The notes under the pieces: model-generated
What the model was told of the DNA's origin: nothing
Seen by the model: the letters and a program-made list of their open reading frames with translations, nothing else
Databases searched by the model: none
Virus record (IMG/VR): IMGVR_UViG_3300025108_000029
Coordinates: 1-64,000 of that record
DNA length: 64,000 nucleotides
Reading direction: 5' to 3' (one strand)
Source of the DNA: a virus
In this document: positions 5,630-45,200 of the stretch, piece by piece
Layout: each line of letters begins with the position of its first letter
Numbering within the stretch: the stretch's first letter is position 1
Program-made: the position numbers and the translations under genes

Positions 5630-7747
5630 GTGAGAAAGGTTGCTGTGCGTAAACCTAATCATGTTCTAAAGGCAGTTTATGACGCTCGACCGTTAAGAAG
5701 GGACCGTGAGCAGTACCTTGATGATTCATTGTTTCGTGAAAGCCCGTTTCACTCATTAAGACTACAAAATGAAAGACACCGATTACCAACTCTTGGTAGA
5801 GCGTTAAACAACTTAGAAAATAGGACTTTTGCAGATGAAACAAGATACTTGAGGGACCATGAATATTTACCTTTAACTGATTTAGCAGGTAATTCACTTA
5901 GCGGGCAGTTTGTATTCCCTGCTCATGCTTATTCTTTTAATCCAAATCCTCGTACAATAGGCGGTAGTACAGCACCCGACCTTCCTATGAACTTAAAAAC
6001 AGGATTACCTTTAAACTTATTTGGTTTTAAAGGTAGAATGCCGCAACGATACGGAAAAAATATTCAAGAAGAAGGTGTCATTTATGGCGATTTAAACGAC
6101 GAGGATGTTGTGCAACTAAATACAAACCCTTTACGACACGATGACATTAGAGAAGCAGGTCGAGCATTATTACCTACACATCACGGTAGATTATCGGGTA
6201 GAGCAAGAGCAGATAAAATAGAAGAAGCCATGAGAGTACTTATGGAGGCTGAAATACCACCTGCGTTGTATAATCAAGAAATGCTGGATATAGAAAATAT
6301 TCACAATGCTGATAATCCAAACCTTACTACTTCGGGTTACATGGGTTCATATTTACAACCATTTAGACAATGGGAACAGGGTGAAGGCTACCGTGTAAGA
6401 GATTTAGACCGACAAGAAGAAATGGGTTTAATTTCCCCCGAACAAAGAATGTTGATGGATGATAATTTAGGCCAAATAGACCCATCGGGTACTTTTTACC
6501 GTAGTGAACCAATGGATATTACTATGCGGTTGCTTAAAACCGCTTACGGTTCTCGTGATGAACCTCCTACCATGACCCGGCTTATGCAGGGTAATTATGC
6601 AGGAAAACCGGGTGCATGTACCCTTTGTGGTAACTCACCAGTAGTAGCAGGGGCGCAATTCCGTAATCCACTGGGTAGTATAAATTACACACACCATTTA
6701 TGTGAGCCGTGTGCAGACCAGTATGGCATCATGCATTCGGCTGATATGTACAAAGGCGAACCAATGGACCTCGCCATGCAGTTGTTGAAAAAATTACCTC
6801 CGCATTGGAGTCGAGATTTTGACACTATAGAACAATTGCGTGACCCTAAACACGGCATACAATCAATGCGAGCCATGTCACTTGAAGACGCTCGAAATAT
6901 TGAACAAATACCATTAAGAAGCGGTAATATAGAGTTTGAAAGAGACTTAACAGACCCCGATATTACAGGTGCAAAAAGTATAGTTCCGGGTATCGCTGGT
7001 GGTAACATATACGATGAAAGTTTAGTAAGAGAAGGTGGTGGTTTTGTTTACAGACCTCATTTAGCCGCTCTTGCCCCACTTTCGCAATACACGGATATGC
7101 CATCAAGTCCAAGACCAAATGTATTGATAGCCTCAACAGAAAAACCGGAGTTTAGAGCAAGTAAAAATGAAGGTAGAATACAAACAGAAGGTTTCATGCC
7201 AGTAGGAATGGACCCAAATCAAGCGTATTTGTTAAGTGACCCTACAAAACCGTTTACTCGTGAAGACTTACTACAACAGGCAAGAATAAAACAAGCCGGT
7301 GGAGTACCATATCATGCAAGAAGCGACATAGAAATAGACCCATTCGACGGATATGCTACGGCTTCACGAGCATTAGAAACTTTACCAAAAGAAAATATTG
7401 AAAACCCTTTTACTCAAATGGGAACATGGGGTCAGCCAAGAGTAGTCGCTGGTCCACAAGATTCCGATGTCTTTTACCGTAGCGAACTAATGGACATTGC
7501 TATGCGACTACTCAAAGAGCGTGTAAGCCCCGAAGCCAAGCGGCATAAGTTGGAGTACGACAAAAAATACGAGTCCAGCCCGGAGAGAGTCAAGTATCGA
7601 GAGGAACTTAACCGTGAACGCCGACGACGACACATCATGGGGCAGGGTGGACCGGACATGAGCCACACCAGCCAGCACACTATTGTTCCCGAAGACCCCC
7701 ATACCAACCGAGCAAGGCATTTCAAGGACAAAGGTACACTTCTTTGA
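5630..7747 (+). CDS. Four-module polyprotein-like ORF with three tag linkers
   Basis: Linkers FYRSEPMDITMRLLK, MYKGEPMDLAMQLLK and FYRSELMDIAMRLLK; one CxxC...CxxC module; basic HNH-like last module. Confidence 0.8.
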   Translation: MRKVAVRKPNHVLKAVYDARPLRRDREQYLDDSLFRESPFHSLRLQNERHRLPTLGRALNNLENRTFADETRYLRDHEYLPLTDLAGNSLSGQFVFPAHAYSFNPNPRTIGGSTAPDLPMNLKTGLPLNLFGFKGRMPQRYGKNIQEEGVIYGDLNDEDVVQLNTNPLRHDDIREAGRALLPTHHGRLSGRARADKIEEAMRVLMEAEIPPALYNQEMLDIENIHNADNPNLTTSGYMGSYLQPFRQWEQGEGYRVRDLDRQEEMGLISPEQRMLMDDNLGQIDPSGTFYRSEPMDITMRLLKTAYGSRDEPPTMTRLMQGNYAGKPGACTLCGNSPVVAGAQFRNPLGSINYTHHLCEPCADQYGIMHSADMYKGEPMDLAMQLLKKLPPHWSRDFDTIEQLRDPKHGIQSMRAMSLEDARNIEQIPLRSGNIEFERDLTDPDITGAKSIVPGIAGGNIYDESLVREGGGFVYRPHLAALAPLSQYTDMPSSPRPNVLIASTEKPEFRASKNEGRIQTEGFMPVGMDPNQAYLLSDPTKPFTREDLLQQARIKQAGGVPYHARSDIEIDPFDGYATASRALETLPKENIENPFTQMGTWGQPRVVAGPQDSDVFYRSELMDIAMRLLKERVSPEAKRHKLEYDKKYESSPERVKYREELNRERRRRHIMGQGGPDMSHTSQHTIVPEDPHTNRARHFKDKGTLL

Positions 7748-7749
7748 AG

Positions 7750-7856
7750 GTCATAATAGTCATATTAGTCATTATAGTAGTCATTATTTTGACCCTACAC
7801 TAAATATATAGTAATACTACTCATTATTTTGAATGATATTATGACTATAATGACTA
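7750..7856. repeat. TAGTCAT direct/inverted repeat array in an AT-rich intergenic region
   Basis: TAGTCAT at 7757, 7766 and 7778; TA(G/C)TCATTATTTTGA at 7778 and 7818; inverted ATGACTA at 7841 and 7850. Confidence 0.8.
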
Positions 7857-7860
7857 CTAA

Positions 7861-7876
7861 AGCGAAAGAGTTATAT
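7861..7876 (+). promoter_or_regulatory. BRE/TATA-like promoter of the GTPase operon
   Basis: Purine-rich GCGAAAGAG followed by TTATAT, 19-24 nt upstream of ATG 7895. Confidence 0.4.
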
Positions 7877-7894
7877 TGGCTTTTCAATTGACCT

Positions 7895-8449
7895 ATGGTG
7901 AGCAACATGCAAGGTAACAGGCAAGACTCGGATGCAGAAATACGACTGATGGGGCTAATTTTGGCTCAATCAGCCTTAGTTGGACTGGCAATTGGCGTAT
8001 TTGACGCTGAACTATGGTTAATTAGCGATACTCCCATGTTAAACGGATTTACATACGCAATGGCGGCATTTTTTGTTCAAGGTATCGCATATTACTTCTT
8101 TAAAATGTTCTTTGAACAGAATATGCAAGAAAGAGTACGAGCAACATCTATTGAAAAGAATAGACAAGACCGATACCGCCAAATGCAACTAAGTTTTGAT
8201 AATCGGCGTAATGATATGGAAATGCGTATGCAAGAAGCGCAACTTGAGCAAGAATTACGATGGATGGAGCAAAACCCCGGTAAAATGCCTCCAAGTTGGG
8301 GTGTTCCCGGTGGCTCTCAATCTATAATTTCTAAGTACGATACTGATAATTTTAATCCCGGCATACCAAACCATGAAGCCGAGGTCAAACAACCAATTAA
8401 CCTTGGAATTAAAGAAGAAGACGAACCTAAAGAGCCAAAAAAGAAATGA
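7895..8449 (+). CDS. Two-TM membrane protein with cytoplasmic coiled coil
   Basis: Hydrophobic segments LMGLILAQSALVGLAIGVF and FTYAMAAFFVQGIAYYFF, then an E/Q/R/M-rich helix. Confidence 0.8.
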   Translation: MVSNMQGNRQDSDAEIRLMGLILAQSALVGLAIGVFDAELWLISDTPMLNGFTYAMAAFFVQGIAYYFFKMFFEQNMQERVRATSIEKNRQDRYRQMQLSFDNRRNDMEMRMQEAQLEQELRWMEQNPGKMPPSWGVPGGSQSIISKYDTDNFNPGIPNHEAEVKQPINLGIKEEDEPKEPKKK

Positions 8450-8458
8450 GGTGATTAA

Positions 8459-8719
8459 ATGGGTCGTATATTCAAAACACCCACAGATGATTCTACCGAG
8501 GCTACACTTCGTGCCATGCACACTCAAAACACCCTTGACACATATTACGAAAAAGGAGTAGGTTGGATAAGAACAGTGATACTGTGTTTTGTTACCGCTT
8601 TGGCTATTAGTTTTTGGGAATTATCTACCGGTGAGTCTTTTTGGGACAATACTGTAGAGTGGGTGTGGAATAAAGTGCAAAACTTTGCAGATTGGATATG
8701 GGGTAAAGTAGATGGTTGA
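8459..8719 (+). CDS. Small membrane protein with Trp-rich amphipathic C-terminus
   Basis: GAGGTG RBS; TM WIRTVILCFVTALAISFW; tail FWDNTVEWVWNKVQNFADWIW. Confidence 0.75.
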   Translation: MGRIFKTPTDDSTEATLRAMHTQNTLDTYYEKGVGWIRTVILCFVTALAISFWELSTGESFWDNTVEWVWNKVQNFADWIWGKVDG

Positions 8720-9428
8720 CCCTGCTGGTTCTGCTCTTGTTGGTGCGGCTGTATTCGGTCAATCCTTGTACAACTCTTGGCGACCTCGCCGTGTAGGTGT
8801 GTATGGTGCGGCAATGGTGGGTAAGACAACTCTTGACCGTTACATGACAACTCCGGGTGAAATGGAAGAAATAGGTGATGATGAAAGAACTTCACACATG
8901 AAAATACTTGGTCGTTACCTAATGCCAAAACCTACCCGTAAGCGTGTATCATGGAAAGGGCAAAAGCGAGTTGTTTATTCAGCCGATATAGGTGGACAAG
9001 AACGATTTTGGAATCTGTGGATTGATGATATGGTATCGAGACAAGTCGAGGCTGTCGTGTTTGTATTTGATGACCGAGCAATAAAAGGTGGAGAAGAAGC
9101 ATTACAACAAATAGCGGGCTTCAAATATCTCGTGGATTGTTTAGTTAATCGCTCTTATCGTTATCGAACTCTCAAAAGTCGGTGGAAGGGTAAAAAGTAC
9201 ACACCTCGATTAGTTATGCTTGTAGCGAATAAAGCAGACCGCTTTTTTGATGAAAATGCCGCAATGCTGTGGCAACAAAACCGAATTGGTGAACATAAAA
9301 TATTCAATGCGTTTCGAGATGACCTTATACGGTTACAAAAAGCAGGAATACCTACACGCCGTTCTTTTATGGCGACTCGTATAGGATGGAATGTTGAAGA
9401 AACGATGATTGACTTACTGACAACTTGA
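8712..9428 (+). CDS. Ras-superfamily small GTPase (Arf/Rab/Roc-like)
   Basis: G1 GAAMVGKTT, G3 DIGGQERF, G4 VANKAD, G5-like MATRIGWNVEE. Confidence 0.88.
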   Translation: MVDPAGSALVGAAVFGQSLYNSWRPRRVGVYGAAMVGKTTLDRYMTTPGEMEEIGDDERTSHMKILGRYLMPKPTRKRVSWKGQKRVVYSADIGGQERFWNLWIDDMVSRQVEAVVFVFDDRAIKGGEEALQQIAGFKYLVDCLVNRSYRYRTLKSRWKGKKYTPRLVMLVANKADRFFDENAAMLWQQNRIGEHKIFNAFRDDLIRLQKAGIPTRRSFMATRIGWNVEETMIDLLTT

Positions 9429-9437
9429 GGGAATATA

Positions 9438-9617
9438 ATGATAAGAAAAACAACAACTGTTATCGCTGTGAATAAAAAAAGTAAATGCGTGAGAACCGTT
9501 ATACCAAATGTAATGGCAGAATTATTACAACTTTCAGCAGGAGATAAAATTAAATGGGAACTATGCGGTAGCACAGAACAAGGATTTTTTTTAAAAGCGG
9601 TAAAAGGTGAAGAGTAA
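9438..9617 (+). CDS. AbrB/MazE/SpoVT-like DNA-binding protein, 59 aa (not in ORF track)
   Basis: MIRKTTTVIAVNKKSKCVRTVIPNVMAELLQLSAGDKIKWEL matches the IP-x5-L-x-L-x-x-GD-x-I-x-W swapped-hairpin pattern; stop overlaps the next ATG. Confidence 0.7.
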   Translation: MIRKTTTVIAVNKKSKCVRTVIPNVMAELLQLSAGDKIKWELCGSTEQGFFLKAVKGEE

Positions 9618-10567
9618 TGATACCTCAAATAAATCAACAGCAAGCCAACCTTGGTAATGTAAACCAAGCGCATTTAATGGCGTTAAGCCAACAAGGTAAC
9701 GATACTTTGTCTTATGCGGCATTGATGGAACAGGCTACGGCTCAAGAGGCTATGCAAGCCGCCGCAAGTGAAAACAACTTACAAGTTCCTAAAGTCAATT
9801 TTTATCCGAGTCGTCACGCTGACCCTCAAAAAGCCCGTCGTAAAGACATAAAACAGGCTTACAAATTACTTACACCTTCAAAGAAAAGTATTGTAAATCC
9901 TGTGCGGTTTATGTTCGGTAGAAAATACAACTACAACAAACAATCCCATGTATGTGTTATAGATGGCTGTGATTGTTCTGTTCTTATTCAACATGATAAC
10001 CTGTATGCAAAAATTACAGATGAAGACACAGGGCGTTCTCTTTGGGAGATGTATTGGCAGAATCCCGTTACTGGTGAGCCGGAGGCTTTTGTAGCATTGG
10101 AAAAAGTTACCAGTGGCCGTAAAATGCGTGGAACATATTGCCCCGAACACATGCATTTGTATCACTTATTATGTAAATGGGAGGCAGAAGAAGACCGTAT
10201 TCGTGAAGCAAACCCAAGACGCTTGCGAGATAGGGTGAAGCAAGGTGTCTCTATTGTAACTGTACCTGTAGCGGCTGTGGCTAAAAAAGACCCAACACCA
10301 AGTATGTTGAAAAAATATGAGCCGTTTTTTGCTGAATTAGAAAAAGACTCTCGTAAAACAAAAGGAATTAGTGTCAGTCATTACAATAACCCATTAACAG
10401 GTCAAAATGACATTACTACTGTTTCGTTTGACTTGCGTATATTTCAGCATGAGTTGGCTTTAGAACAACAATCAACACCGGCTTTTCAAGCCTTAATACA
10501 ACAACATGTAAATAACTCTATCAATCAAAACCCTCTTGAGCAAGAAAGTACTGGGGTAGGTGAGTGA
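9617..10567 (+). CDS. Hypothetical protein, probable Zn-binding (CxxxxC ... CxxH)
   Basis: 316 aa; CVIDGCDC and YCPEH motifs; Q-rich N-terminus. Confidence 0.75.
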   Translation: MIPQINQQQANLGNVNQAHLMALSQQGNDTLSYAALMEQATAQEAMQAAASENNLQVPKVNFYPSRHADPQKARRKDIKQAYKLLTPSKKSIVNPVRFMFGRKYNYNKQSHVCVIDGCDCSVLIQHDNLYAKITDEDTGRSLWEMYWQNPVTGEPEAFVALEKVTSGRKMRGTYCPEHMHLYHLLCKWEAEEDRIREANPRRLRDRVKQGVSIVTVPVAAVAKKDPTPSMLKKYEPFFAELEKDSRKTKGISVSHYNNPLTGQNDITTVSFDLRIFQHELALEQQSTPAFQALIQQHVNNSINQNPLEQESTGVGE

Positions 10568-11204
10568 GATGTTGGGATTAGGCGGGAATCAAGCACCGAT
10601 GAATAATGGTGCGTTGAACTTAGGTGTTCAAAGTCAGCAAGCACAGATGCCTATGCAAAGTCAAAATCCTTGGGCTAATCAACAAGTCATGGGTGCAGGT
10701 CAATCCCCTCTTATGCAGGGCATGTTCGGCGGTCAACAAAATCAATTTGTTCAACAACCAGTTACCCCTCCAACAGAACTTGAAATACAAATTATGTTAT
10801 TGCGTGGTATATCACCTATTGAACGATATGTTGCCGGACCACAGATGGGTACGCTTGTTGAAATGTTTAGTACTCTTGTAAGTTACAGTGTAATAGAAGT
10901 GTTGCGTAATGCGACTTTTGTAGTTGATGAAGAAACAGGAACTATGAAAATGGATGTAACATCGTTACCTCAAAACTTACAAACACTAAGTGCTGAAAAT
11001 GTTACAGGGCAGTTTAGTACACTCCAAGCATCAGCACAACAAACTGTTAATCAAACAGAAATGGAACAACAGCAATTAGCCGCTTTCGCTCAACAGTCTA
11101 TGATGGGCGGCGCACTTACAGCGGCTCTTGCTAATGACGGTGTAATGGAAAAAGTCGGCGGAGGCTTAGGTAGCCTCGGTCGCAGTTTTATGGGAATGAG
11201 GTGA
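10560..11204 (+). CDS. Q/M/G-rich hypothetical protein
   Basis: 214-aa ORF in the operon; amphipathic G-rich C-terminus. Confidence 0.75.
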   Translation: MSEMLGLGGNQAPMNNGALNLGVQSQQAQMPMQSQNPWANQQVMGAGQSPLMQGMFGGQQNQFVQQPVTPPTELEIQIMLLRGISPIERYVAGPQMGTLVEMFSTLVSYSVIEVLRNATFVVDEETGTMKMDVTSLPQNLQTLSAENVTGQFSTLQASAQQTVNQTEMEQQQLAAFAQQSMMGGALTAALANDGVMEKVGGGLGSLGRSFMGMR

Positions 11205-11209
11205 ATTAA

Positions 11210-11464
11210 ATGAGACAACCAAATGATTTTACAGGCTATATACCAAACTCTTTTGCCGCCACTACACTTGATATGTTAAATCCTAATCGAAGCATTATCA
11301 TTGATATGATTATGGTACAACTAATTTCAGTTATTGTAGTCATGAGTATGATTTTGATTTTCAAAGGTGGCTCAATGTCATCAGCAAGTGTATCGTATTA
11401 CCTTGTAGGTCTATTCGCCAGTTTCCTTATGCTCACTGGTGCTTATTCCCGTATCATTCGCTGA
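11210..11464 (+). CDS. Small two-TM membrane protein (holin-like topology)
   Basis: GAGGTG RBS; two hydrophobic segments in 84 aa. Confidence 0.7.
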   Translation: MRQPNDFTGYIPNSFAATTLDMLNPNRSIIIDMIMVQLISVIVVMSMILIFKGGSMSSASVSYYLVGLFASFLMLTGAYSRIIR

Positions 11465-11728
11465 CGGCCATTTGTGAATCGGACATTGCGAATTAAGTAG
11501 TGCTGTTTTAGAATTAACAAAGCAACCGCATAGGTCACATCGTGTTCCACCATGAGGGCATGTTTGGCAAATACGAACCCTTTCCTTTACCAAAGTGGGC
11601 GGTGCATATTCACCTTTTGCTATGTCTTTAGCCGCTTGAGTGAGGCTACGAATAGATTGTTTGTTAAGAGGTACACCTGCTATTCTTTTAACCCGCCACA
11701 TGATTCTTGCGAACAGTAGATTAACCAT
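11411..11728 (-). CDS. Small Cys-rich phage protein (RxxICxxC...CxxCGC...CPxxKW)
   Basis: ERVRICQTCPH...RCDLCGCFVNSKT...CPIHKW is a motif pattern common in phage genomes; start uncertain. Confidence 0.7.
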   Translation of the reverse strand: MVNLLFARIMWRVKRIAGVPLNKQSIRSLTQAAKDIAKGEYAPPTLVKERVRICQTCPHGGTRCDLCGCFVNSKTALLNSQCPIHKWPSANDTGISTSEHKETGE

Positions 11729-11761
11729 AACTGTTTTCTAAGGGTGTTGCGTAAGAGTGGC

Positions 11762-12442
11762 ATGGAGGGCGGTGAGCGAGTAGTGAAACGCTCGTGCCGT
11801 CTGTGTGTTCATGAAGACCGTGATGAATTAGAAGAACAACTTCTACAAGGTCATATCACACCAAAAGAAATGGATAAAAACATGAGTTGGCGAGCCAATA
11901 CCGCTGACCGTCACTATCGAAACCATATGGGTGAATACCACTTAGCGGCCAATCCTTCTTGTCCTGTATGTGCTTCACCTAATCGTGCTGATTACGAGTT
12001 TGAGTTTTTTAATAACGGTGGGTCAACAGACGCTATCGCTACTGCACTTGAAATACCCGAAAGTGTAGTGTACAACCATATGAAAAACCACTTTCAACCG
12101 TTGGTGCAAAAAACAGCGGCTCTTGAAGTAGCACTTACGGCTGGTCGTGAAATAGAACTACTTCGCTCAAACGCTCAAAAATTAAACCATAAACTTAGCG
12201 AATTACTTGACGAGGGTAGTGTTCATGAGGATGGATTTGTAAGAGATGCTGTTATATTACACAAGGAAGTACGGGAAACTGTCAAAGACTTACTACGCTT
12301 CGAGGACCAATGGGGGCCGCAAAGCGACGGGCAACAAGTCAATCAAACAATCAATGTATTGCAGATTGAATTGAGTAAAGAAAGCCCGGAAACTTGGACT
12401 CGTATTAAGAAACAACTTGAAGAAAACATGGGGGTGGAATGA
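11762..12442 (+). CDS. Tandem Zn-finger/HTH protein with coiled coil; terminase small subunit candidate
   Basis: Two repeats (CRLC...RHYRNH and CPVC...NHMKNH), helical oligomerisation-like region, C-terminal NQTINVLQI strand; first gene of the packaging operon. Confidence 0.55.
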   Translation: MEGGERVVKRSCRLCVHEDRDELEEQLLQGHITPKEMDKNMSWRANTADRHYRNHMGEYHLAANPSCPVCASPNRADYEFEFFNNGGSTDAIATALEIPESVVYNHMKNHFQPLVQKTAALEVALTAGREIELLRSNAQKLNHKLSELLDEGSVHEDGFVRDAVILHKEVRETVKDLLRFEDQWGPQSDGQQVNQTINVLQIELSKESPETWTRIKKQLEENMGVE

Positions 12443-13731
12443 TGGTTATGGGAAGAGGTTCGGACACACGAATGTATGCACCCCGTAGTGAATCATCTCA
12501 AATGTATTCGTCTGCTAATGAAGACGAAAGTAAGTACAACCCTACTTCGCCCGAAGACAATGAAAAGCGGGCAGAAGCAAAAAAACTCAAAGAAGAAGAG
12601 GCTAAGAAAAAAGCCAAAGACATCAAACACATTAAAATCAAACCAAATCAAGGTTTAGGTGCAGGACCGGGATTAGAAACAGAACCCGGTCTTGATGACG
12701 GCAACAAGCGTGATGATGAGCGTGAGATAGGTCTTCAAGGTGGACCGGCTGGTAGTCGTGGACATTTACTTGATTTAGCCACAGGTGCAAAAACAGGCAC
12801 AGGTTCAGCAATGGGTACGGGTAATTCAGCCGTAAGAACAGGTGAACCAATGGCTGATGCTTGGAGTTCGCTACTCAAGCGTGAAACTCGTGGAACTATT
12901 GAAGGTCGCCGTCGCCGTGAAAAGCGAAGAGAGTTCCGCCCTTCAACTGGACAATTCAAAAGACCACCCGGCGGTCAATCCCCTGTTGGTGCAACCATGC
13001 GCCGTTTCCGAGCGCACATGCGTGGTATCAAGGGTGGTAAGAAAACCGGATTGATGAAACCCCACTTGGCTGTTGAAATGAGCCACCGTGGTATTGCTAC
13101 CAAGCAACCGATGAGTAAAGACCCACAGAAGTATCGTCAATACATGGGGCAACAAGAAGCAAAGAAAATACTTGGTAATGTCCGAACAACCTATTCTCCA
13201 CACGCCCGACACAGCGCAAGGTCATTCACTGCTGGACCAACTGGCGGTGGCCGCTTAACTGGACTACTACCGGGTCAATCCGGCCAAATGCGACAACCGG
13301 CTTTGCAAAGACTACGCCGACCTCGTATGCCACGGATGCCACGGATGCCAACCCCGCAGATGCCATCTATGCCGCAGATGCCCCCGCCAATGAGCAGTGT
13401 TCCAAGTATGCCAGCACCATCGTCTTCCATGATGATGAGTGACGAGCGCACTCAAAGTGATTTACTCAAAGCAAATCGTCATGCTAATCGAACTGAAATG
13501 CTTGCACTAATGCGTATGTTAATTCAAGCACAGCGAGCAAAAGCGAGCATGAAAAAATCAAAACCTAATTTTTATGATGGCAATGTACCTCAACATGCTT
13601 CACCTGTTCATAACTACGAGGATGAAGAAGAAAAGAATGACGGCCCTACTCAAAACCTTGAAACTAATTCAAGCCGCTTAGGACTCGACCCTGCGGGTTA
13701 TTTATCCGGTAAGCGGGGGCATTCGGGATGA
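12439..13731 (+). CDS. Basic low-complexity protein with internal tag (GEPMADAWSSLLKR)
   Basis: 430 aa; acidic N-part, R/K-rich part after the tag, PRM/PQM repeats. Confidence 0.8.
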   Translation: MMVMGRGSDTRMYAPRSESSQMYSSANEDESKYNPTSPEDNEKRAEAKKLKEEEAKKKAKDIKHIKIKPNQGLGAGPGLETEPGLDDGNKRDDEREIGLQGGPAGSRGHLLDLATGAKTGTGSAMGTGNSAVRTGEPMADAWSSLLKRETRGTIEGRRRREKRREFRPSTGQFKRPPGGQSPVGATMRRFRAHMRGIKGGKKTGLMKPHLAVEMSHRGIATKQPMSKDPQKYRQYMGQQEAKKILGNVRTTYSPHARHSARSFTAGPTGGGRLTGLLPGQSGQMRQPALQRLRRPRMPRMPRMPTPQMPSMPQMPPPMSSVPSMPAPSSSMMMSDERTQSDLLKANRHANRTEMLALMRMLIQAQRAKASMKKSKPNFYDGNVPQHASPVHNYEDEEEKNDGPTQNLETNSSRLGLDPAGYLSGKRGHSG

Positions 13732-16675: not shown

Positions 16676-18166
16676 ATGGGAGATGACATGAATGCGTTTA
16701 TCCAAGAAATGGATAGCAAAATGGCGGCAAAGTCATTCAAGTACTTCTTTACAGAAATACTGGGCTTTCATTACAGTCATCACCATGAATCATGGGAAAC
16801 AGGACTAAACGAACACCGTTACTACTGTGTTAAAGCAAGTCGGGACCACGGTAAATCCACTTTGTTTATGGCCTATGCTCTTTGGATAGCCGCATTCAAA
16901 CCGGGAACACACATCATGATTTTTTCTCACTCCCTTGAACAGACACTTGAACACATGCGATTTATCCGCAATAACATTGAGAGTGCTGACATTTTGCGAC
17001 ACCTAAAGCCCGAAGGTGGGCGACCGTGGGCTAAGTCTTACTTTGAGTTCACCAACGGTAGCCGTCTAATGGCTAAGTCGGTTGGTGGTGCAACTCGTGG
17101 TTTCCACCCCGATGTGGTAGTATGCGACGATATTCTTTGGGGTACAACTGGTGGAGAACTACAGCGAGCCGCTGACTGGTTCTACGGTGTTTTACTCCCT
17201 GTTCTGCACCACTCATCTCGTTTGATGATGGTAGGTACACCGTTCAGTTACAACGATTTGTACGCCGAATTGGAAGAAAAAGAAACATTCCGTGTCGAGA
17301 CATACCCTGCAATTGACGGTGAAGGTAACGCTCTTTGGCCGGAACGGTGGAATCTCGAAGCACTTGAACAACGGCGTATGTCAATGCCCGCTATCCAATT
17401 CAGCCGTGAATACCTGTGTGAACCTATTCACGATGTTGCGAGTATGTTCCCCGCTACTATTCTCAATGAGGCTCGTAACACAGATTTGGTATTACTCGAT
17501 AGGGCTGATACCGAGTATGATGAAGAGGGTAATCCCGCTGGCGTATTCGGTCAACACTTTATCGGATGGGACACAGCAATCGCTTCGGATAAGAACGCTG
17601 ACTACACAGCCATGCTTGTTTTGCGTACACCGCCCGGTGAGAATGTAAAACAAATTGTTGGCATAGTTCACGAGAAGGGACTTGGTGGTTTGGCACAGAA
17701 AAAACACATTCTTACTCTCAACAGTCGTTTTCAGCCGGATTTAATTGAACTTGAAGGTAACAATTTTCAGCGAATGTTTGCCGCTGAACTTCAAGACATG
17801 AGAGGGGATATTCCTATTCGCACCTTTATGACAACTCGCCAGCGCAAAGAAAGCATGTTCATGTCTTTGCTTATGGCGTTTGAACAAGGACAAATCCAAT
17901 TACCATATGGTGATGAGCGAAGTCGTACATTTACACATAAATTAGAAGAAGAACTCAACCGATTCGGTATGCAAAAAAATGGGCGACTTGAATCGGTGGG
18001 AACGCACGATGACTTGGCAATGGCACTTGCTTTAGCGAACTGGGGAACGAAAGAGTTCAAAGGTTCAGTACAACTACTCGATGATATACTACCCGGATTG
18101 GATGAGTATATCGGCGGAAAAACACACAGAAACAAAGGAACTGGCGACGGATGGTTAATACCATGA
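16676..18166 (+). CDS. terL: Terminase large subunit
   Basis: Walker A ASRDHGKST, Walker B VVCDD, motif III VGTP, RNase H-like nuclease IGWDTA...HDDLAMA. Confidence 0.95.
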   Translation: MGDDMNAFIQEMDSKMAAKSFKYFFTEILGFHYSHHHESWETGLNEHRYYCVKASRDHGKSTLFMAYALWIAAFKPGTHIMIFSHSLEQTLEHMRFIRNNIESADILRHLKPEGGRPWAKSYFEFTNGSRLMAKSVGGATRGFHPDVVVCDDILWGTTGGELQRAADWFYGVLLPVLHHSSRLMMVGTPFSYNDLYAELEEKETFRVETYPAIDGEGNALWPERWNLEALEQRRMSMPAIQFSREYLCEPIHDVASMFPATILNEARNTDLVLLDRADTEYDEEGNPAGVFGQHFIGWDTAIASDKNADYTAMLVLRTPPGENVKQIVGIVHEKGLGGLAQKKHILTLNSRFQPDLIELEGNNFQRMFAAELQDMRGDIPIRTFMTTRQRKESMFMSLLMAFEQGQIQLPYGDERSRTFTHKLEEELNRFGMQKNGRLESVGTHDDLAMALALANWGTKEFKGSVQLLDDILPGLDEYIGGKTHRNKGTGDGWLIP

Positions 18167-23708: not shown

Positions 23709-26700
23709 ATGGTAGCAGAACAATTCAATATCGCTAAAGACGAATTACTCCTTTCATTAGCCGATGGTAATGACTTAGCGTTTAGTGCCGCTGAATACAT
23801 TATTGCTTGGGAATCTCTTAACAAAGCCCCTACAGACACACTTTCAAAGTCGTTAAAATATACGGCTGAACTAATTCAAAAAGAAGAAGACAAAGCCGCA
23901 AAAGTAGAAAAAGTCAAGTCCTATAAAGAAGGTCCGGGTTTTCTTCTTGCACATCATCATACTCATGGTGAACAGACAAACCATGTTTGGAAGGACAGTT
24001 TATCGGGTGCTGACAATGTGAGAGAATCTCACGCTGTATGGCCTCGGTATGTACCTACTTCATCTCATCCATATCGAGAGCATAATTATCCTTTTCACCA
24101 TACTAATCACCCTCTTTTGCGAATGGACTCAAGTAAAGGTAATGCTGGTTATGTTGAAGTTTTACGAAGTCATATTTTTGGCGGTCATTCTAAAGAAGAA
24201 GCGCAAATGGAAAAAGAGTTTCAAAAGTATTTAGAAACGAAGAAAAGTCCATTGGTACACGGATATAACGGTAAAAAAATCCTCGGCTCGTTGAGACATC
24301 ATAAATCAAATTATAGCCATCAACATGACCTTTACGAGCGAGATTACCAACGCTGGAATAAACTTAACAGTGATTTGAAAGACCAGTATCTCGCTGATGG
24401 TCGTTCAGCAGAAGAAACTGAAAATCGTTTACGAGTGGACCATTTTAATCAAAGAGCAAAGCAGTGGCAAAGCGGCGGGTATGTTGTAGATGAAAACGGT
24501 GATAATCATGCTGTTGGATTAGGACAAGAGGGGTATCACCTTGGTCTTGAATGGCTTAATCCCGAAGAACGCACAGCCGTAATGCGTCATCTACATGAAA
24601 AAGGAGTTGACAATCATAATGAAATAAAGTTACCAAATGGTGAGTTTATCCCTACGGCTCGATTGACTTGGAACAATTTAATGCGTCGTACACCGGAAAA
24701 GAACTGGGCGTTAAGAGCAAGCGGTCACTTTGGCCCAAACGGTCATTTACGACAAGAAACACTTGAGGGTGACTTTAGACAAGGTGATAACCGTTTTTCA
24801 CAAGGTGTAATCGGAGAGGCGGCTCATACTTATGAAATAGGAGGACAACCAATTTCACATTACATTGCAGAAGCGATACATAATCGCTTTGGGATAGAAC
24901 TGCCCGATGGTGATAATGAAGGAGTCGGGAAACCATTTGACATTCTACCAAGACTCGGTTTACATTCAAAGCCGGTTCAAGACAGTTACTCGTTGAAAGA
25001 CTTACGGGCTGGTACATTTAAACACTATAAAAAATCAAAAGGAATGGACCCGAAGCATACTCGTATGCCAATGGAGGATGTTCTATTCCTTGCAGGTTAT
25101 GACCCTAAAACACGAAAGCCGCTTCTTAATCACCCTATATACGGAGAAATGGATGGTCCGATTATCCCGCTTCATGACTTAGAACAGATGGAGTCGGAGG
25201 CTAAATCTCATGGCTCTTTGTCTTCATTGGCTAAAGAGATGAGAACTGACCTCGCTTATTTACAATCTCCGCATGGTCCTCATCCCGATGAAGAAAAACC
25301 TAAGTTTTGGCGATTTGATAAGGGTGGTAATCATACTATAGGACCAGCAAAGTTTTGGAGTAAACCTTTCGCTCAAGTTGGTGGTGCTGATATGACTTTG
25401 GCTACTTACAATGAGAATGTACACAGTGTTGCTCATAATGAAGACGAATTAACAGAAGAAGAAAAAATCGAACAGGCGTATGCAAACATAGCGAGTAATG
25501 AGCCTGTGGATATTACCGGTGGGGCGCAAAACGAAGACACTGCACACATCCCAACTCCGTTTCAACAAAAAAAGAAAGACATGTCATCCCCCTCTACTTC
25601 GGGGTTATTTGAAGTAAATGAGCAACATCACGGCCAACTACACCCCAATCCAATTAACATGGCTTTAGGGATGCACTTTGGGCCGGAGAAATCAAGAGAA
25701 ATAGGACAAGTTGAAAAACAAAAAGGAGGTGCTACCAAGTTTGTAAGGTTTCAAGACGGTGATATTCTACAAAATCTATTCTCACCTGCTAATGCCTTTA
25801 CAAAAACCAGTAGCGGTGATAAGCATAATTGGACATTACATCAATCAACTTACAACCCTCAACTACTACATTCTCTCCGTACAATGAGTAATGATGAAAA
25901 AAAGAAACTTAAAGTTGATACTATTAAACAAACTTTACATTCACATAATCCATTAAAAACATCTCAACCCGAAAGCACCTATGGAGCGCATACATCGGAT
26001 GCACCTATTGGTGAGAAAGCAAGAGCAAATCATTGGCGAAAAACAATGTTGGGGCAAACATTAGACCCCTACAAACCGCAGAAAAACTCGGTTCAACCAT
26101 TGAAGGACTTAATGAGTGGAAACATTCCTGTAAGTTTTGGAGTGGACCATGAGGATTACATGGATTTTTTGGGGTGGGGTGTTAAACAACCCAATTTTAA
26201 CAATGTAAAAAACTACATTACTTCGCCGGATAGCGCAAAAGCCTTGCGTATTTTGACAGCAATAGCAAAAGAAACTGGGAGTAATTCTCCTAATCGTATT
26301 CTAAACAACATTAACGATTTGACAGAAGACAACCCAATGTATGCTGATATTAAACATCGTATGGAAAAAGAGGGTTCATACCTTAACGACGGGGATATAG
26401 ACGAACTTAAAGGGTGGTTAAATAGTTTTGAAGTACAATTACGGCAGAAAAAGGGTAAAGAGGCGGAAGCGAAAAACCAACGCAGTAAAACCAGCATTCA
26501 AGCAACAGAAGACACAACATTTACTACAAGAACTATTGACTCCGCATTGAAGTTTGGTGGTATGCTTCCTGCAATGCAAAAAGAAAAAGAATTGAGTGAG
26601 CGATTGAATGTTATTACTGAAATGATACAATACATGGATTCACCGGAACAGGTACAATCATTAAGACGGGAATTAGATGAAGGGCAAGTAGAATTGAATA

Positions 26701-42212: not shown

Positions 42213-45200
42213 ATGGTAGGGATAGGTAGAACAAGCAACGCTTTCTTTTTTGATGGCGTTACTGATTCAATACTTATCCCTCAAGGTAACTTTACCAGCG
42301 TAGGACCAGCACGAGATATACTTGGGAAAACAAGTAGAGGCGGTGACGAGTTTACACATATCAACTCTATCATGGATGATAGTTTTGTTATCGAAGCGTG
42401 GGTAGTACCGGACTGTGGTGGTATAGTCGCACACCGTGATGAACAATTTACTCTTGAGTTTGGTACAGTAGATACACCCGGCCCTGCTAAGTTTACTGTA
42501 CAATTAAAAACACAAAGTGGTATGCATCCTGTTTCCTTAAGCACAGCCAAGGCTACATCAACACGATGGGATGGAGTGGTTTACCCGCCGCAAGAAGTAG
42601 GTGGAATACATGATACCTACAATAGATACTTGAAAGACAATACCGCTTACAACGATGCTACAAACCTCAATTTCAAACACCGTGGATTGTATCATGTAGT
42701 AGCAGGAGTTACAGCGGGTTCTGTTTTTTTGTATGTCAACGGACATGTTGTAGCAACGCAAGAAATTGACATTGAAAGTAGAATAGCAGACTCAACAGCA
42801 CATGTGTACATCGGCGGTAAAGGTGGAGAGTTTAGAGGGGCTATCGAGGCTATTCACTTTAATAGTGAGTTCGATTCGCAAATGGCTGTAAGTACTGTAC
42901 CCGTCAACAGTGATACAACAAAAGGTATGTATCGCTTTGAAGAACCACTGGATATTGTAGAAGAATCCTATGACTTTAACGCCTTTACTGTAGCCGCTGA
43001 TGGTACGACAACTACCATTACCGTAGCCGCTACTGACGCTCAAGCCCTCATTGCTCGCTTGACCGGTAAACCGTATGACAGCACCAGTGCTACAACTACA
43101 TTCACAGCCACTCCTTACAGTATGGGTAACTACAAAGTTACCGATTTTGCCACCACACCCGGCACAGAAGCGACACTTGCTATACCTCATACCCCATACA
43201 ACATTCTCATCAATCCGGGTTCTATTAACCGGAATACGGAAAAACCAAACGCTTCTCCGCCGGAAAGAGCAAGAATAGAGTCAATTAACGGTTCTACTGG
43301 GGTAATCACAGTAAGTAGTATTCACATTGATTTTAACATTAGTGGGGGTAAGCGGGGGCTATTACATTCCCGTACTGCTGATATTGACAACTACTTTGTC
43401 GTTGTAAATGCTGATTTGTTGATTGATAATGGAACAGGTAAGCCGTATCAACCTCCACACTACGGTAGTCAAATATTTGATAAAACGGGTCAAATGGTGA
43501 TTGACGAGAGTAACTTTTCACAACACGCATTAGTGTACTCTACTCAAATGGCTACTACTGATAATTCACCAAGCAACCCGTTTGCTGTTTCTTGGCCTTC
43601 TACATTGGATGTTTTGTATCAAGTAGGACACAGTGGGCGACATAGATATTCTCATATCACAGGTCATGAGTATATGCGCCGCTATCCTCAACCCGCATAC
43701 CTCTCAATAGACCAAATCATGGGTGGAACGGCAGATGTTGTTGAAATGGGATATGACAGTAATACAAAGGGTATTGCTGATTTGTTTGCAATGAACGCTC
43801 TATCCGACTTCTATGAAGAAAGTACACAGGTGACAGTGGCTAATTTTATCAATTCGACACCTGCAACTTTTGTAGTGTCAAATGGTTTAGCAAAAAGTAA
43901 AGAGCAAGCCATTGCTATTGGTGGTACAAACTTTGATTACCGCCCATTTATGCTAAAAGGTCCAGTACCGGAGTTTGAAGGTGACATCAATGATGATACA
44001 CGGTTGTATCATTTGCGACCGGAAAGTGTGAGCCGTATTGCTTTACTCAAAGTTCCTACTCTTCAAACCACACATAGCCTTGCACCGTATGTTGAGATAC
44101 ACTACAATGCGGTTGACTTGACTGGTGCGAGTATGGGTAAAACAACACCTTGTTTGATGATAGAAAAGACTGTACCGAGTGGTAATTATGTTCTTACCGG
44201 CTCTACTACAGTGCTTGATGTCATTGAGGCAGACTTAGCCGATGCTACAAAAGACACCACATTGTTTGCACCCGGTGGCCTCATTATGACAGGTAACAGT
44301 CAAACGACCACTACACATCATTTAGAGACAGAACATTCGTTAATCGGTGATAATACCGGAGGGTATGAACTTGACAGTGAAGTAGATTTTAGTCGTTGTC
44401 CTGTCAATTATACGCCACCCGGTAACGCAACAACAGATGGTAATACAACACCTCAACACCTTACAGCGTCACATAATAACGGCGTACACGATTCAGCATA
44501 TCATAAATTATGTATAGAACCAAATGCTGATAATTCTGTTAAAAATATGACTGAAATAGGTTTACAGTCTATTAAACCGGCGGCTGTAATCAATACTGGT
44601 ACAGGAGTATTCGATGAAGGTTCAACTACTGATGCGAGTAATAACTTTGAAATGTTTGACATTATAGATAATGTCGTCTATAATACACACGAGTATTCCG
44701 GTATTATATTTGTTCAGCCATCCGACAGAACCCGAACAAATCAGTTATCGAAAATGCGTACAAATCAAACAGAAGGTAACTCACCAAGTATCGCATCGTT
44801 ACTGTACCTCATGAGCCGCACTCGTATTCGCTCAATAAAAGAAGACGAAGACCCCGGTACAAATGAAAAAACCGTCACTGTATTGGCGACGGGTATCGCA
44901 GAAGGACTCGCTAATCAAAATGTCAACATCACCGGTAGCGGCTCACCGGATTCACACATCGTCAAAGAGATTGAGCCAAACGCCCCTGTAGTTACTGTAA
45001 CACTTGGCGGGCCGGGGCAGGGTGCGATTAACACCAAACCTACCTATGACCCAAGCCCGCTAATGCGATTACCCGGCTCAACCCGCCGTAGTTGCGCTGT
45101 ACAGGCTGTGAGTGTCAATACTGATACCGATAGGATATACATGTCAGTTCAACCCCTCAATAACCTGTCAACAGATATGGCATCGTGGGGAACATATTGT

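Follow-up and report, generated by a model that had tools for sequence, protein, structure and literature searches.

The DNA examined here is a 64,000-nucleotide stretch of a viral genome (the window), and at positions 7895-11464 it encodes a cassette of seven genes built around a real small GTPase, a very divergent 238-aa protein of the Arf/Sar1/SRbeta structural type. We infer that the cassette is a self-contained viral membrane module centred on a GTP switch. The explanation that we favour, tentatively and with somewhat less than even confidence, is that this GTP-switched module is expressed with the late genes and serves in egress or lysis, which makes it a candidate means by which these viruses affect or breach the membrane of the host. 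The egress machinery of archaeal head-tailed viruses has been described as 'still completely uncharacterized' (PMC10791045), and our search of the literature found no paper that describes the cassette.

Genomic organization

The source is a tailed, magrovirus-type virus whose hosts are Marine Group II (Poseidoniales) archaea, organisms that are abundant in the ocean. The seven ORFs lie on the same strand at exactly the positions given in the first-pass annotation, and at their junctions the genes overlap by up to 8 nt or are separated by up to 9 nt, all gaps and overlaps being 10 nt or less. A BRE/TATA-like promoter lies in front of the unit and a convergent gene at its end, and both the ORF positions and the hydropathy profiles agree with the tightly coupled operon with three membrane proteins that had been proposed. 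Packaging and head genes follow directly downstream (g9-g12, the large terminase at 16676-18166, and the portal, protease and capsid genes), and the block has the same orientation as the late structural genes. This adjacency to packaging genes suits morphogenesis as well as lysis. The transcription unit is ended by the convergent, Cys-rich gene g8 (11411-11728, minus strand), which overlaps the 3' end of g7 and is outside the cassette; it is found in 42 of 80 related viral loci, and it matches phrog_13558 (E 8e-14) and, below the cut-off of 27 bits, PF19668 (E 3.5e-5, 24.5 bits).

The putative promoter is the element GCGAAAGAGTTATATTG at 7862-7878 (plus strand), which has no other exact copy in the 64-kb window and which we predict to be functional from its fit to the archaeal BRE/TATA consensus. 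It lies approximately 17 nt 5' of the g1 ATG, implying a leaderless or short-leader transcript, and among the 46 relatives listed many have the same GCGAAA..TTATAT/TTATGAT element just 5' of g1. Upstream of the promoter, at 7757-7856, is a cluster of the short repeat TAGTCATWAT, a candidate operator, in which the plus strand has three direct copies plus one with a single mismatch and the minus strand has two, bordering an AT-rich stretch; all four exact matches in the window fall within these 100 bp. Relatives have other short repeats at the equivalent place, and these are lineage-specific.

The GTPase

The GTPase gene (8712-9428, plus strand) encodes all of the motifs noted at the outset, namely GAAMVGKTT (residues 32-40), DIGGQERFWNLW (residues 92-103) and NKAD (residues 173-176), and in terms of G motifs the protein has G1 GxxxxGKT, switch-I ERTxH, G3 DIGGQ, G4 NKAD and a G5-like MAT. 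Among 82 distinct relatives GK[ST] and DxxG are present in every one and NKxD in 81, while the position equivalent to the Arf catalytic glutamine is occupied by Q (44), E (25), D (7), H (5) or A (1); the switch may therefore not cycle like that of Arf. Two conserved basic insertions are located at approximately residues 61-74 and 147-166, and a point against a membrane role is that these polybasic segments could bind nucleic acid instead of lipid. The N-terminal hydrophobic helix claimed earlier is also present, spanning residues 4-23 of the AF2 model (pLDDT 88, pTM 0.85). Its hydropathy is mild and sub-threshold (1.09 in 19-residue Kyte-Doolittle windows) and its hydrophobic moment is about 0.2, and by these measures it qualifies neither as a classic amphipathic helix nor as an unambiguous membrane-spanning anchor.

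Profile matching, HHalign and structure comparison agree in placing this virus-encoded protein on the Arf/Sar1 side of the small GTPases, as first suggested. A Foldseek search with the model returned at least 500 Ras-superfamily matches (top E approximately 1e-8), and the top rows of the VIA-align comparison are Arf6 (Z 17.4 and 17.2), Sar1 (17.1) and SRbeta (16.4), followed further down by a Loki RagA-like protein (15.8) and Arl2 (15.5). The best Rab scores 14.6, and the Rab-like trait proposed in the first-pass annotation gains no specific backing, since Rabs rank under Arf6, Sar1, SRbeta and Rag. The best PDB match of the family profile is the Asgard protein GerdArfR1 (8oun, E 4.6e-6), in an alignment that spans the N-helix and P-loop and also switch II; Arl8 is next (E 4.5e-4). 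When the viral family is aligned with Asgard Arf-like proteins, HHalign reports a probability of 95% over 131 columns (E 2.7e-8). The protein falls below every Pfam cut-off, scoring 12.3 bits with the Arf model versus the 22.3 required.

The neighbouring genes

Three neighbours are predicted membrane proteins with hydrophobic segments long enough to span a membrane, and hydropathy agrees with the two, one and two hydrophobic segments initially assigned to g1, g2 and g7, respectively. The first gene, g1 (7895-8449, plus strand; translation may really begin at the ATG at 7907), encodes 184 aa with segments at residues 18-36 (2.16 in 19-residue Kyte-Doolittle windows) and 55-73 (1.37); the protein also has a long helical stretch rich in charged residues, and its tail is acidic/basic. 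The 86-aa single-pass product of g2 (8459-8719, plus strand) has a conserved N-terminal stretch of 33 residues, a hydrophobic segment at 34-52 (1.97) and then the Trp-rich amphipathic C-tail described previously (hydrophobic moment up to 0.49), and the last 8 nt of the gene, stop included, lie within the GTPase gene. At the distal end, g7 (11210-11464, plus strand) encodes 84 aa with segments at 33-51 (2.75) and 65-83 (1.61) and a basic C-terminus, a size and topology that we would call holin-like. Neither g1 nor g7 has a family match in Pfam, PHROG or NCBIfam.

Three further neighbours complete the cassette. The 59-aa product of g4 (9438-9617, plus strand) is an AbrB/SpoVT-like (swapped-hairpin) putative DNA-binding protein; its earlier designation as an AbrB-like regulator holds at the family level, with eight of nine members matching PF04014 (best E 1.2e-5), and less well for the window copy itself, which scores 12.5 bits. 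Its best PDB match, 3o27, is weak (E 0.35). Within the block g4 is the gene that varies and can be dispensed with, being detected in 46 of the 80 loci, and g5 directly follows the GTPase wherever it is absent. The g5 gene (9617-10567, plus strand) encodes a 316-aa orphan with a Gln-rich N-terminus, in which Cys113 and Cys175 are invariant in the family alignment and Cys118, His178, His180 and His183 nearly so, making zinc binding plausible. No fold match (Z 5.4 or less), PDB match or Pfam match was found for g5, whose AF2 model has a pLDDT of 63. The last of the three, g6 (10560-11204, plus strand; the ATG at 10569 is the likelier start), encodes 214 aa, and alignment confirms the Q/M-rich character reported for it: a low-complexity Q/M/N/G-rich N-terminus precedes a conserved centre of approximately 110 aa and a Gln-rich C-terminus. 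It has no match in Atlas, Pfam or PHROG and no recognisable fold. As neither g5 nor g6 has a recognisable fold, either could be a roadblock/longin partner of the GTPase.

Conservation and origin

The order g1-g2-GTPase-g5-g6-g7 is kept in 79-80 of 80 related IMG/VR loci, which is far beyond chance. The GTPase is the best conserved gene of the cassette (66-97% identity), and g5 is the best conserved of its neighbours (80/80 loci, 56-98% identity); g6 and g7 are likewise kept in all 80, and g1 (44-98% identity) and g2 in 79. The arrangement also persists in two distant loci, L085 and L090, where GTPase identity is only 36-40%: L085 retains g1-like, g2-like, GTPase, g5-like and g6-like genes in order, and in L090 the order extends through g7, g9 and g10. 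Both have recognisable counterparts of g1 and g2, and no g4-sized ORF between the GTPase and g5. The gene set is thus co-inherited across deeply diverged magrovirus-type viruses, and the synteny anticipated in the first-pass annotation extends well beyond close relatives.

Searches also indicate that the GTPase family is virus-restricted. Among 1.84 billion cluster representatives 80 matched at E 1e-3 or better, and none of these outscores the viral family's own divergent full-length members. Only one of 201 Poseidoniales genomes has a match, on a 106-kb viral-type contig that carries the cassette within a single-cell genome; four further genome records match, through contigs of 8-101 kb in unrelated bacterial or Asgard MAGs, and these contigs are likely mis-binned. 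No match was found in the phage collection.

Relation to known systems

The Arf family (Arf6/Arf1, Arl2, Arl8, Sar1 and Asgard ArfR) shares with the viral protein a Ras-superfamily G-domain (Z approximately 17 to Arf6 and Sar1), a switch II of the form DxGGQxxFxxLW and, presumably, the 'AT' of the G5-like motif. The N-terminal helix that precedes the P-loop in GerdArfR1 (PDB 8OUN/8OUM; bioRxiv 10.1101/2024.02.28.582541) aligns with the viral one. The viral GTPase differs from Arf proteins in being virus-encoded with integral membrane neighbours, in its extra length of approximately 50 residues and its basic insertions, which lie in the interswitch and before beta5, in its variable catalytic-glutamine position (Q/E/D/H/A), in having no Gly2 myristoylation site, and in its Gly/Ala-rich N-helix of low hydrophobic moment.

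Structural similarity extends to SRbeta and Sar1 (Z 16.4-17.1), although the viral protein has no sequence-level membership of these groups. Such GTPases combine an N-terminal hydrophobic anchor with a membrane-bound regulator and soluble partners (the SRalpha SRX domain; Sec12 and Sec23/24); a longin, Sec12-like or Sec23-like fold could be recognised in none of the cassette neighbours, among which g5 and g6 have no recognisable fold. The cassette also resembles phage holin-type lysis cassettes in having several membrane proteins of 84-184 aa with one or two hydrophobic segments and charged tails, and in lambda-like phages small lysis membrane proteins are likewise located just upstream of the terminase region. 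Unlike those cassettes, however, no member matches a holin or lysin family, nor any coat family, and we know of no lysis cassette with a GTPase.

Function of the cassette

Egress or lysis could proceed as follows. In its GTP-bound form the GTPase, whose membrane binding we predict from its sequence, would expose its N-terminal helix and basic patches and dock on the cytoplasmic side of the host membrane, either at g1 and g2 or by way of them. Once docked, it would recruit or release two soluble partners, the Cys/His protein g5 and the Gln/Met-rich g6; jointly with the small membrane proteins, among them g7 with the size of a holin, these would deform or breach the membrane late in infection, allowing virions to exit a cell bounded by membrane and surface layer only. 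Expression may be timed by g4 and the repeats that precede the promoter. To our knowledge Poseidoniales have no murein wall, and no endolysin is therefore expected; the earlier observation that no conventional endolysin is visible holds among the proteins scanned and is uninformative for such a host. The virus may also bring an ArvABC-like system of its own to hosts of an order that yielded no ArvB marker in 61 genomes.

ArvABC (OapABC), in which ArvA with ArvB and ArvC drives vesicle formation in Haloferax volcanii (PMC10927574), is the functional analogue that we propose for the cassette. Both have a small GTPase of the archaeal world with an N-terminal membrane-facing helix, encoded in an operon with a Cys-rich protein (a zinc-ribbon protein after ArvA, PMC10927574; a Cys/His protein downstream of the viral GTPase), and ArvABC acts on the cell membrane, as we propose for the viral proteins. 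HHalign aligns the viral family with ArvA (93.5%, E 2.2e-7, 45 columns) at the end of the N-helix, at the P-loop and at switch I, with shared patterns 'IGIYGPP..GKTTL' and 'EIP.E.R', and ArvB (PF09846) was found in 0 of 61 Poseidoniales genomes versus 74 of 151 genomes of the phylum. An ArvABC counterpart might make the infected cell bud vesicles, as receptor decoys against superinfection, for envelope remodelling or for export, with lysis done otherwise. We consider this unlikely, as the ArvA match spans 45 columns only, DTPG and ISAL in ArvA stand in place of the viral DxGGQ/E and MAT, and no cassette protein matches OapB (PF09846) or a further Pfam family at an E of 0.1 or lower; moreover, ArvABC is without integral membrane partners, whereas the cassette adds three of them and a Gln/Met-rich protein.

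It is similarly improbable that the GTPase has a non-membrane role as an assembly or timing factor for the procapsid, portal or genome packaging, its two conserved polybasic insertions binding nucleic acid or capsid proteins and the adjoining membrane proteins being functionally separate. The position of the block directly upstream of g9-g12 and the terminase, portal, protease and capsid genes would suit such a role, but a membrane context is favoured by the 8 nt shared with g2 and by the strict conservation of the gene alongside three hydrophobic-segment proteins. The related haloarchaeal tailed viruses also build heads of a similar kind, yet no match to the GTPase occurs in the phage collection. 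We know of no small Ras-like GTPase in tailed-virus assembly.

Superinfection exclusion at the membrane, or a takeover of the host there, through a block on the entry of another virus or through changes to transport, division or the surface layer, would fit the regulated-looking promoter and AbrB-like regulator of the cassette, and exclusion is a common role of small viral membrane proteins. Such a function is nonetheless quite doubtful here, since exclusion genes are usually variable accessory genes, whereas this block belongs to the core and stays colinear over deep divergence, with the GTPase best conserved, and is co-oriented with the late structural genes. Finally, the notion of a captured host GTPase, a recent passenger gene with meaningless neighbours, is exceedingly improbable and was rejected: no cellular homologue among the 1.84 billion representatives outscores the family members, the few genome matches lie on viral-type or probably mis-binned contigs, and gene order is kept even at 36-40% GTPase identity. 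The label 'GTPase SAR1 family protein', which might suggest such an origin, is an automatic annotation of relatives in some sources.

Organization of the GTPase cassette

The seven co-oriented ORFs that a first-pass annotation had grouped around a small GTPase gene lie at 7895-11464 (+), exactly where it had placed them. They encode two small membrane proteins (g1 and g2), the 238 aa GTPase (8712-9428), an AbrB-like protein of 59 aa (g4), a Cys/His protein of 316 aa (g5), a Q/M-rich protein of 214 aa (g6) and a further small membrane protein (g7). The junctions between these genes range from an 8 nt overlap (g2/GTPase and g5/g6) to a 9 nt gap, and g6 more probably starts at an ATG at 10569. 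The transcription unit is closed by the convergent gene g8 (11411-11728, -), which overlaps the end of g7 and encodes a DUF6171-like Cys-rich protein; 3' of the cassette are genes g9-g12, followed by the large terminase and head genes, all of which are co-oriented.

The g1 gene is preceded by a 147 nt gap containing, approximately 17 nt before the g1 ATG, the element GCGAAAGAGTTATATTG, which we take to resemble an archaeal BRE plus TATA box. A BRE/TATA-like element also immediately precedes g1 in many of the 46 relatives compared, and there is no second good copy of the promoter-like motif elsewhere in the 64 kb window. On the 5' side of this element, at 7757-7856, there are TAGTCATWAT repeats in both direct and inverted orientations, with four to five exact copies and one containing a single mismatch, and all of the exact copies in the window fall inside these 100 bp. 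In relatives this position is occupied by other short tandem repeats, differing from those of the window, and the organization suggests that the cluster is a fast-evolving, lineage-specific candidate operator that would serve a regulator particular to the virus, perhaps the AbrB-like g4.

The GTPase resembles the Arf/Sar1 group

The nucleotide-binding motifs reported in the first-pass annotation are all present in the GTPase and are strongly conserved among 82 distinct relatives. The G1 P-loop (GxxxxGK[ST]) is GAAMVGKT at residues 32-39, with GK[ST] present in 82 of 82; G3 is DIGG at residues 92-95, with DxxG also in 82 of 82; and G4 is NKAD at residues 173-176, with NKxD in 81. Within the switch-I (G2) region, Thr60 is part of a conserved (E/D)RTxH motif, some form of which is found in 80 of the 82 relatives, and from its position and conservation we infer that it is the Mg-binding switch-I threonine; a role for the Arg or His of this motif in catalysis is speculation.

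Placement of the GTPase within a subfamily rests on profile and structure comparisons. An AF2 model built from a 25-sequence alignment (pLDDT 88) has a six-stranded beta-sheet G-domain fold, and a Foldseek search with this model matched at least 500 Ras-superfamily chains (best E approximately 1e-8) without separating the subfamilies. A structural search against representatives gave the highest scores with Arf6 (Z 17.4 over 173 residues with an rmsd of 4.4, and Z 17.2 over 162 residues with an rmsd of 2.6), followed by Sar1 (17.1), SRbeta (16.4), a lokiarchaeal RagA-like protein (15.8), Arl2 (15.5) and Galpha (15.1); adjacent rows of this ranking are tied within 1 Z unit, and despite these ties its top is filled by the DxGGQ-bearing Arf/Sar/SRbeta/Rag/Galpha group. 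The best Rab scored 14.6, below Arf6, Sar1, SRbeta and the RagA-like protein, so that the Rab-like character proposed earlier finds no specific backing and is rejected as a specific assignment.

Curated family models are matched poorly. A single-sequence Pfam search gave E values of 0.011 for Roc and 0.12 for Arf, both far under the cut-off, with the Arf family (PF00025) scoring 12.3 bits against a required 22.3; only nine of 25 family members matched PF00025 at E <=1 (best E 0.0048). The NCBIfam small_GTP model scored 13 bits against a cut-off of 42.5, and PHROGs contained no match to the GTPase. The family profile found as its best solved structure the Asgard Arf-related GTPase GerdArfR1 (8oun, E 4.6e-6; bioRxiv 10.1101/2024.02.28.582541), with Arl8 next, and the GerdArfR1 alignment covers the N-terminal helix and P-loop and then switch II. 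A profile-profile comparison with three Arf-like proteins from one Asgard genome gave a probability of 95% (E 2.7e-8, 131 columns). Our reading is that the viral GTPase works like an Arf/Sar1-type switch, yet stands outside the curated Arf family.

Several features set the viral protein apart from Arf. There are two conserved basic insertions, one of about 12 residues in the interswitch region, at approximately residues 61-74, and another at approximately residues 147-166. Relative to the Arf switch II motif DxGGQxxxRxxW, the window copy is DIGGQERFWNLW, in which LW is kept but the Arg is replaced. The catalytic Gln that is invariant in Arf is variable here, the residue following the G3 glycine being Q in 44, E in 25, D in seven, H in five and A in one of the 82 distinct relatives. 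The N-terminal hydrophobic helix of the first-pass annotation is borne out as a helix, which AF2 predicts at residues 4-23 and which aligns with the N-helix of GerdArfR1, but its hydrophobicity is only mild; it is Gly/Ala-rich, with a mean hydropathy of 1.09 and a low hydrophobic moment (muH approximately 0.2), values typical neither of a classical amphipathic helix nor of an unambiguous membrane-spanning anchor.

Distribution and synteny

When 1.84 billion cluster representatives were scanned exhaustively with HMMER, only 80 proteins matched at E <=1e-3, and the full-length members examined, down to 32-35% identity, have in common the N-helix, the motifs GKT, T.H, DxGG and NKxD, and HPIF...GIP in the C-terminal part. 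Of 201 Poseidoniales genomes sampled, only one matched, on a 106 kb single-cell contig. With 80 matches in 1.84 billion representatives and one among 201 Poseidoniales genomes, the GTPase gene is therefore viral and old in this virus group. Among the GTDB species genomes the family is present six times in five records; the sixth place is the same Poseidoniales contig and the other five are in MAGs of alphaproteobacteria, Flavobacteriales and Asgard archaea (L086, L088, L089, L091 and L087, with the labels Maricaulis, Parvibaculum, Flavobacteriales and Promethearchaeati), on contigs of 8-101 kb, the one of 101 kb being in a Flavobacteriales MAG. It is likely that these bacterial and Asgard contigs are mis-binned magrovirus contigs. 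Two further proteins were also noted: the distant family member P0131 had no related loci among viral contigs, and P0152 is a predicted 5500 aa protein with 12 separate GTPase-matching stretches at 28% identity, for which a wrongly predicted read-through ORF and a tandem series of GTPase-like repeats are both conceivable.

Gene order is well conserved in the synteny comparison that the first-pass annotation had proposed as a check. In 80 related IMG/VR loci, whose GTPases are 66-97% identical, g1, g2, g5, g6, g7, g9 and g10 occur in the same order in 79-80, and no gene of the block is better conserved than that of the GTPase; g4 is present in 46 of the 80 loci, and g8 in about half (42). Recognizable counterparts extend to two distant loci. 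L085, on a 110 kb contig and next to a thermosome gene, a magrovirus trait (PMC5434244), retains the GTPase together with counterparts of four of its neighbours: a g1-like helical protein with two transmembrane segments, a single-pass protein resembling g2, a g5-like protein encoded from a start that overlaps the stop of the GTPase gene, and a g6-like protein rich in Q and M. In the second, L090, the entire g1-g2-GTPase-g5-g6-g7-g9-g10 order is kept without g4. The comparison argues strongly that the GTPase works together with g1, g2, g5, g6 and g7, with g4 as a putative optional regulator.

The virus and its host

The window represents the first 64 kb of a 77 kb virus record with an estimated completeness of 72%, and encodes a large terminase, portal, prohead protease, HK97-type capsid protein and tail tube. 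The best matches to the capsid protein are those of the haloarchaeal siphoviruses HVTV-1, HCTV-1 and HCTV-5 (34-37% identity), and similarity to these viruses is the signature that first revealed the magroviruses, whose hosts are archaea of Marine Group II (Poseidoniales) (PMC5434244). The relatives of the GTPase are encoded on contigs of up to approximately 150 kb from marine metagenomes, those of Tara among them, and about 16 studies of marine metagenomes contain the locus DNA, with no RNA run among the runs matching the locus. Because of the capsid matches and the marine origin of the relatives, we treat the virus as a magrovirus-type archaeal tailed virus.

The contig bearing L090 (CACGHY010000002.1, 106,262 bp) is from the Poseidoniales single-amplified genome AG-422-I20 and contains the whole cassette, with a GTPase identity of 36%. 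It looks like a complete or near-complete magrovirus-type genome inside, or attached to, a host cell, and as such is a hint of a physical kind that the host belongs to the Poseidoniales; if it was indeed caught in or on its host cell, it would provide physical evidence for the host assignment.

Proteins encoded beside the GTPase

The membrane segments predicted earlier for g1 (two), g2 (one, with a Trp-rich amphipathic tail after it) and g7 (two) are supported by simple hydropathy, and the topology of these three proteins is compatible with that of holin-type small membrane proteins. Searches of PHROGs, NCBIfam and Pfam gave nothing meaningful for g1, g2, g5, g6 or g7; holins share little sequence similarity among themselves (PMC10791045). 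The AbrB-like description of g4 holds at the family level (the AbrB/SpoVT swapped-hairpin family PF04014 in eight of nine members, best E 1.2e-5), although the window copy reaches only 12.5 of the 24.7 bits required, and the match of g4 to the PDB is weak (3o27, E 0.35).

In the g5 alignment two Cys are invariant and one Cys and three His nearly so. The AF2 model of g5 (mean pLDDT 62.8) is too poor for a fold search, a wide structural search with it returned helical-bundle rows only (Z <=5.4) with no assignable fold, and the sole match of the g5 profile to the PDB was a chance-level NUDIX (E 0.21). The Q/M/N/G-rich N-terminus of g6 is genuine, as had been described, and the ESM Atlas held no usable match or model for this protein. 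None of the cassette neighbours of the GTPase matches a roadblock family in Pfam, and there may be a cryptic roadblock or longin domain in g5 or g6, whose folds AF2, the wide structural search and the Atlas did not reveal. Complex prediction for the GTPase with g5 residues 55-300 scored 0.03 relative to a mark of 0.32, a value obtained without controls that counts neither for nor against a partnership.

Just downstream, g9 (11744-12442) is kept in 80 of 80 loci. Its product has Cys pairs of the forms CxxC and CPxC and matches HTH_40 weakly (E 0.052), and may act as a small terminase or as a regulator of late genes.

Comparison with ArvABC

ArvA (OapA) is a small GTPase with an N-terminal helix, the deletion of which gene abolishes, and overexpression boosts, vesicle formation in Haloferax volcanii; it is encoded together with ArvB (DUF2073) and the Zn-ribbon protein ArvC, a proposed GAP (PMC10927574). 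We compared the cassette with five ArvA-ArvB-ArvC loci fetched from the phylum of the host. The viral profile aligns with ArvA with a probability of 93.5% (hhalign, E 2.2e-7), but over 45 columns only, corresponding to the end of the N-helix, 'IGIYGPP..GKTTL' and 'EIP.E.R', and BLASTP aligned the P-loop alone. The G3 and G5 motifs also differ, with DTPG and ISAL in ArvA but DxGGQ and MAT in the viral protein. No cassette protein matches ArvB (OapB, PF09846), nor other Pfam families at E <=0.1 beyond weak chance-level matches; g5 has no Pfam match at this threshold, DUF2072 (ArvC) included, and its Cys residues are not spaced as in the CxxC...CxxC pattern seen in ArvC at two of the loci (L093 and L094). 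The PF09846 search does work, since 74 matches were obtained when 151 genomes from the host's phylum were sampled. It gave none in 61 Poseidoniales genomes, a sample of incomplete genomes, and ArvB is therefore 'not found' in this group rather than 'absent'. ArvABC is thus the nearest functional analogue of the cassette and not a family that includes it.

A possible role in egress

The intact GTP-binding switch of Arf/Sar1 type, tight packing with membrane-protein genes whose starts and stops partly overlap, deep co-conservation, promoter-like element, co-orientation with late genes and restriction to viruses form the observed base for a proposal in which the GTPase would dock on the membrane in a GTP-dependent manner through its N-helix and basic patches, at g1 and g2. 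The docked GTPase would then recruit g5 and g6 and, with g7, the membrane would be deformed or ruptured late in infection, such that virions could leave a host having only a membrane and a surface layer. In its broader form, that the cassette is a membrane-acting, GTP-switched module, we consider this proposal probable; that it acts specifically in egress or lysis is a tentative reading to which we give somewhat less than an even chance. It is rather doubtful whether we can go further and regard it as the egress machine of head-tailed archaeal viruses, with an Arf-like GTPase assembling small membrane proteins and low-complexity partners for a GTP-timed deformation and rupture of the host membrane.

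Two alternatives are about equally improbable. One is viral vesiculation without lysis, to be set beside the vesicle formation that depends on ArvA; the other is a morphogenetic or packaging role, to be set beside the co-oriented terminase and head genes downstream. We know of no Ras-like GTPase in tailed-virus assembly, and a morphogenetic function would to our knowledge be the first. A function in exclusion or takeover is less probable still, and capture of a passenger GTPase from the host is contradicted by the distribution results, the scan of 1.84 billion representatives and the one match in 201 Poseidoniales genomes rejecting a recent event, and can be given very little credence.

The players in lytic egress of head-tailed archaeal viruses were described in a 2024 review as 'still completely uncharacterized' (PMC10791045), and a conserved, virus-restricted operon of a GTPase and membrane proteins is a concrete and clonable candidate for addressing this question. 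It extends to viruses the small-GTPase membrane systems so far represented by eukaryotic Arf/Sar1, Asgard ArfR and euryarchaeal ArvA, and provides a naturally occurring minimal set of genes with which the coupling of a GTP switch to membrane proteins can be studied; if the proposal is true, a eukaryote-style system of a GTPase plus membrane partners would operate in a virus of non-Asgard archaea. Our literature searches found nothing relevant on small GTPases in archaeal or Poseidoniales viruses, and the main texts of the magrovirus papers searched make no mention of a GTPase, although their supplementary tables may hold an unremarked 'GTPase' line; some relatives already carry the automatic IMG label 'GTPase SAR1 family protein'.

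Other features of the window

Two ORFs are very large for a virus of approximately 100 kb, one of 1948 aa (23709-29555, +) between the portal and prohead protease genes, and one of 6115 aa (42213-60560, +) after the tail-tube gene. A peptide motif, approximately Y-(R/K)-x-E-P-M-D-(I/L)-(T/A)-M-x-L-L-K, is encoded three times (6506-6538, 6758-6790 and 7484-7516) in the gene for a 705 aa protein upstream of the cassette (ORF 5630-7747), and a variant, GEPMADAWSSLLK, occurs once (12844-12879) in a 430 aa low-complexity protein downstream of it (ORF 12439-13731). This repeated motif could mediate docking or processing, as might be needed for the prohead protease or the capsid interior.
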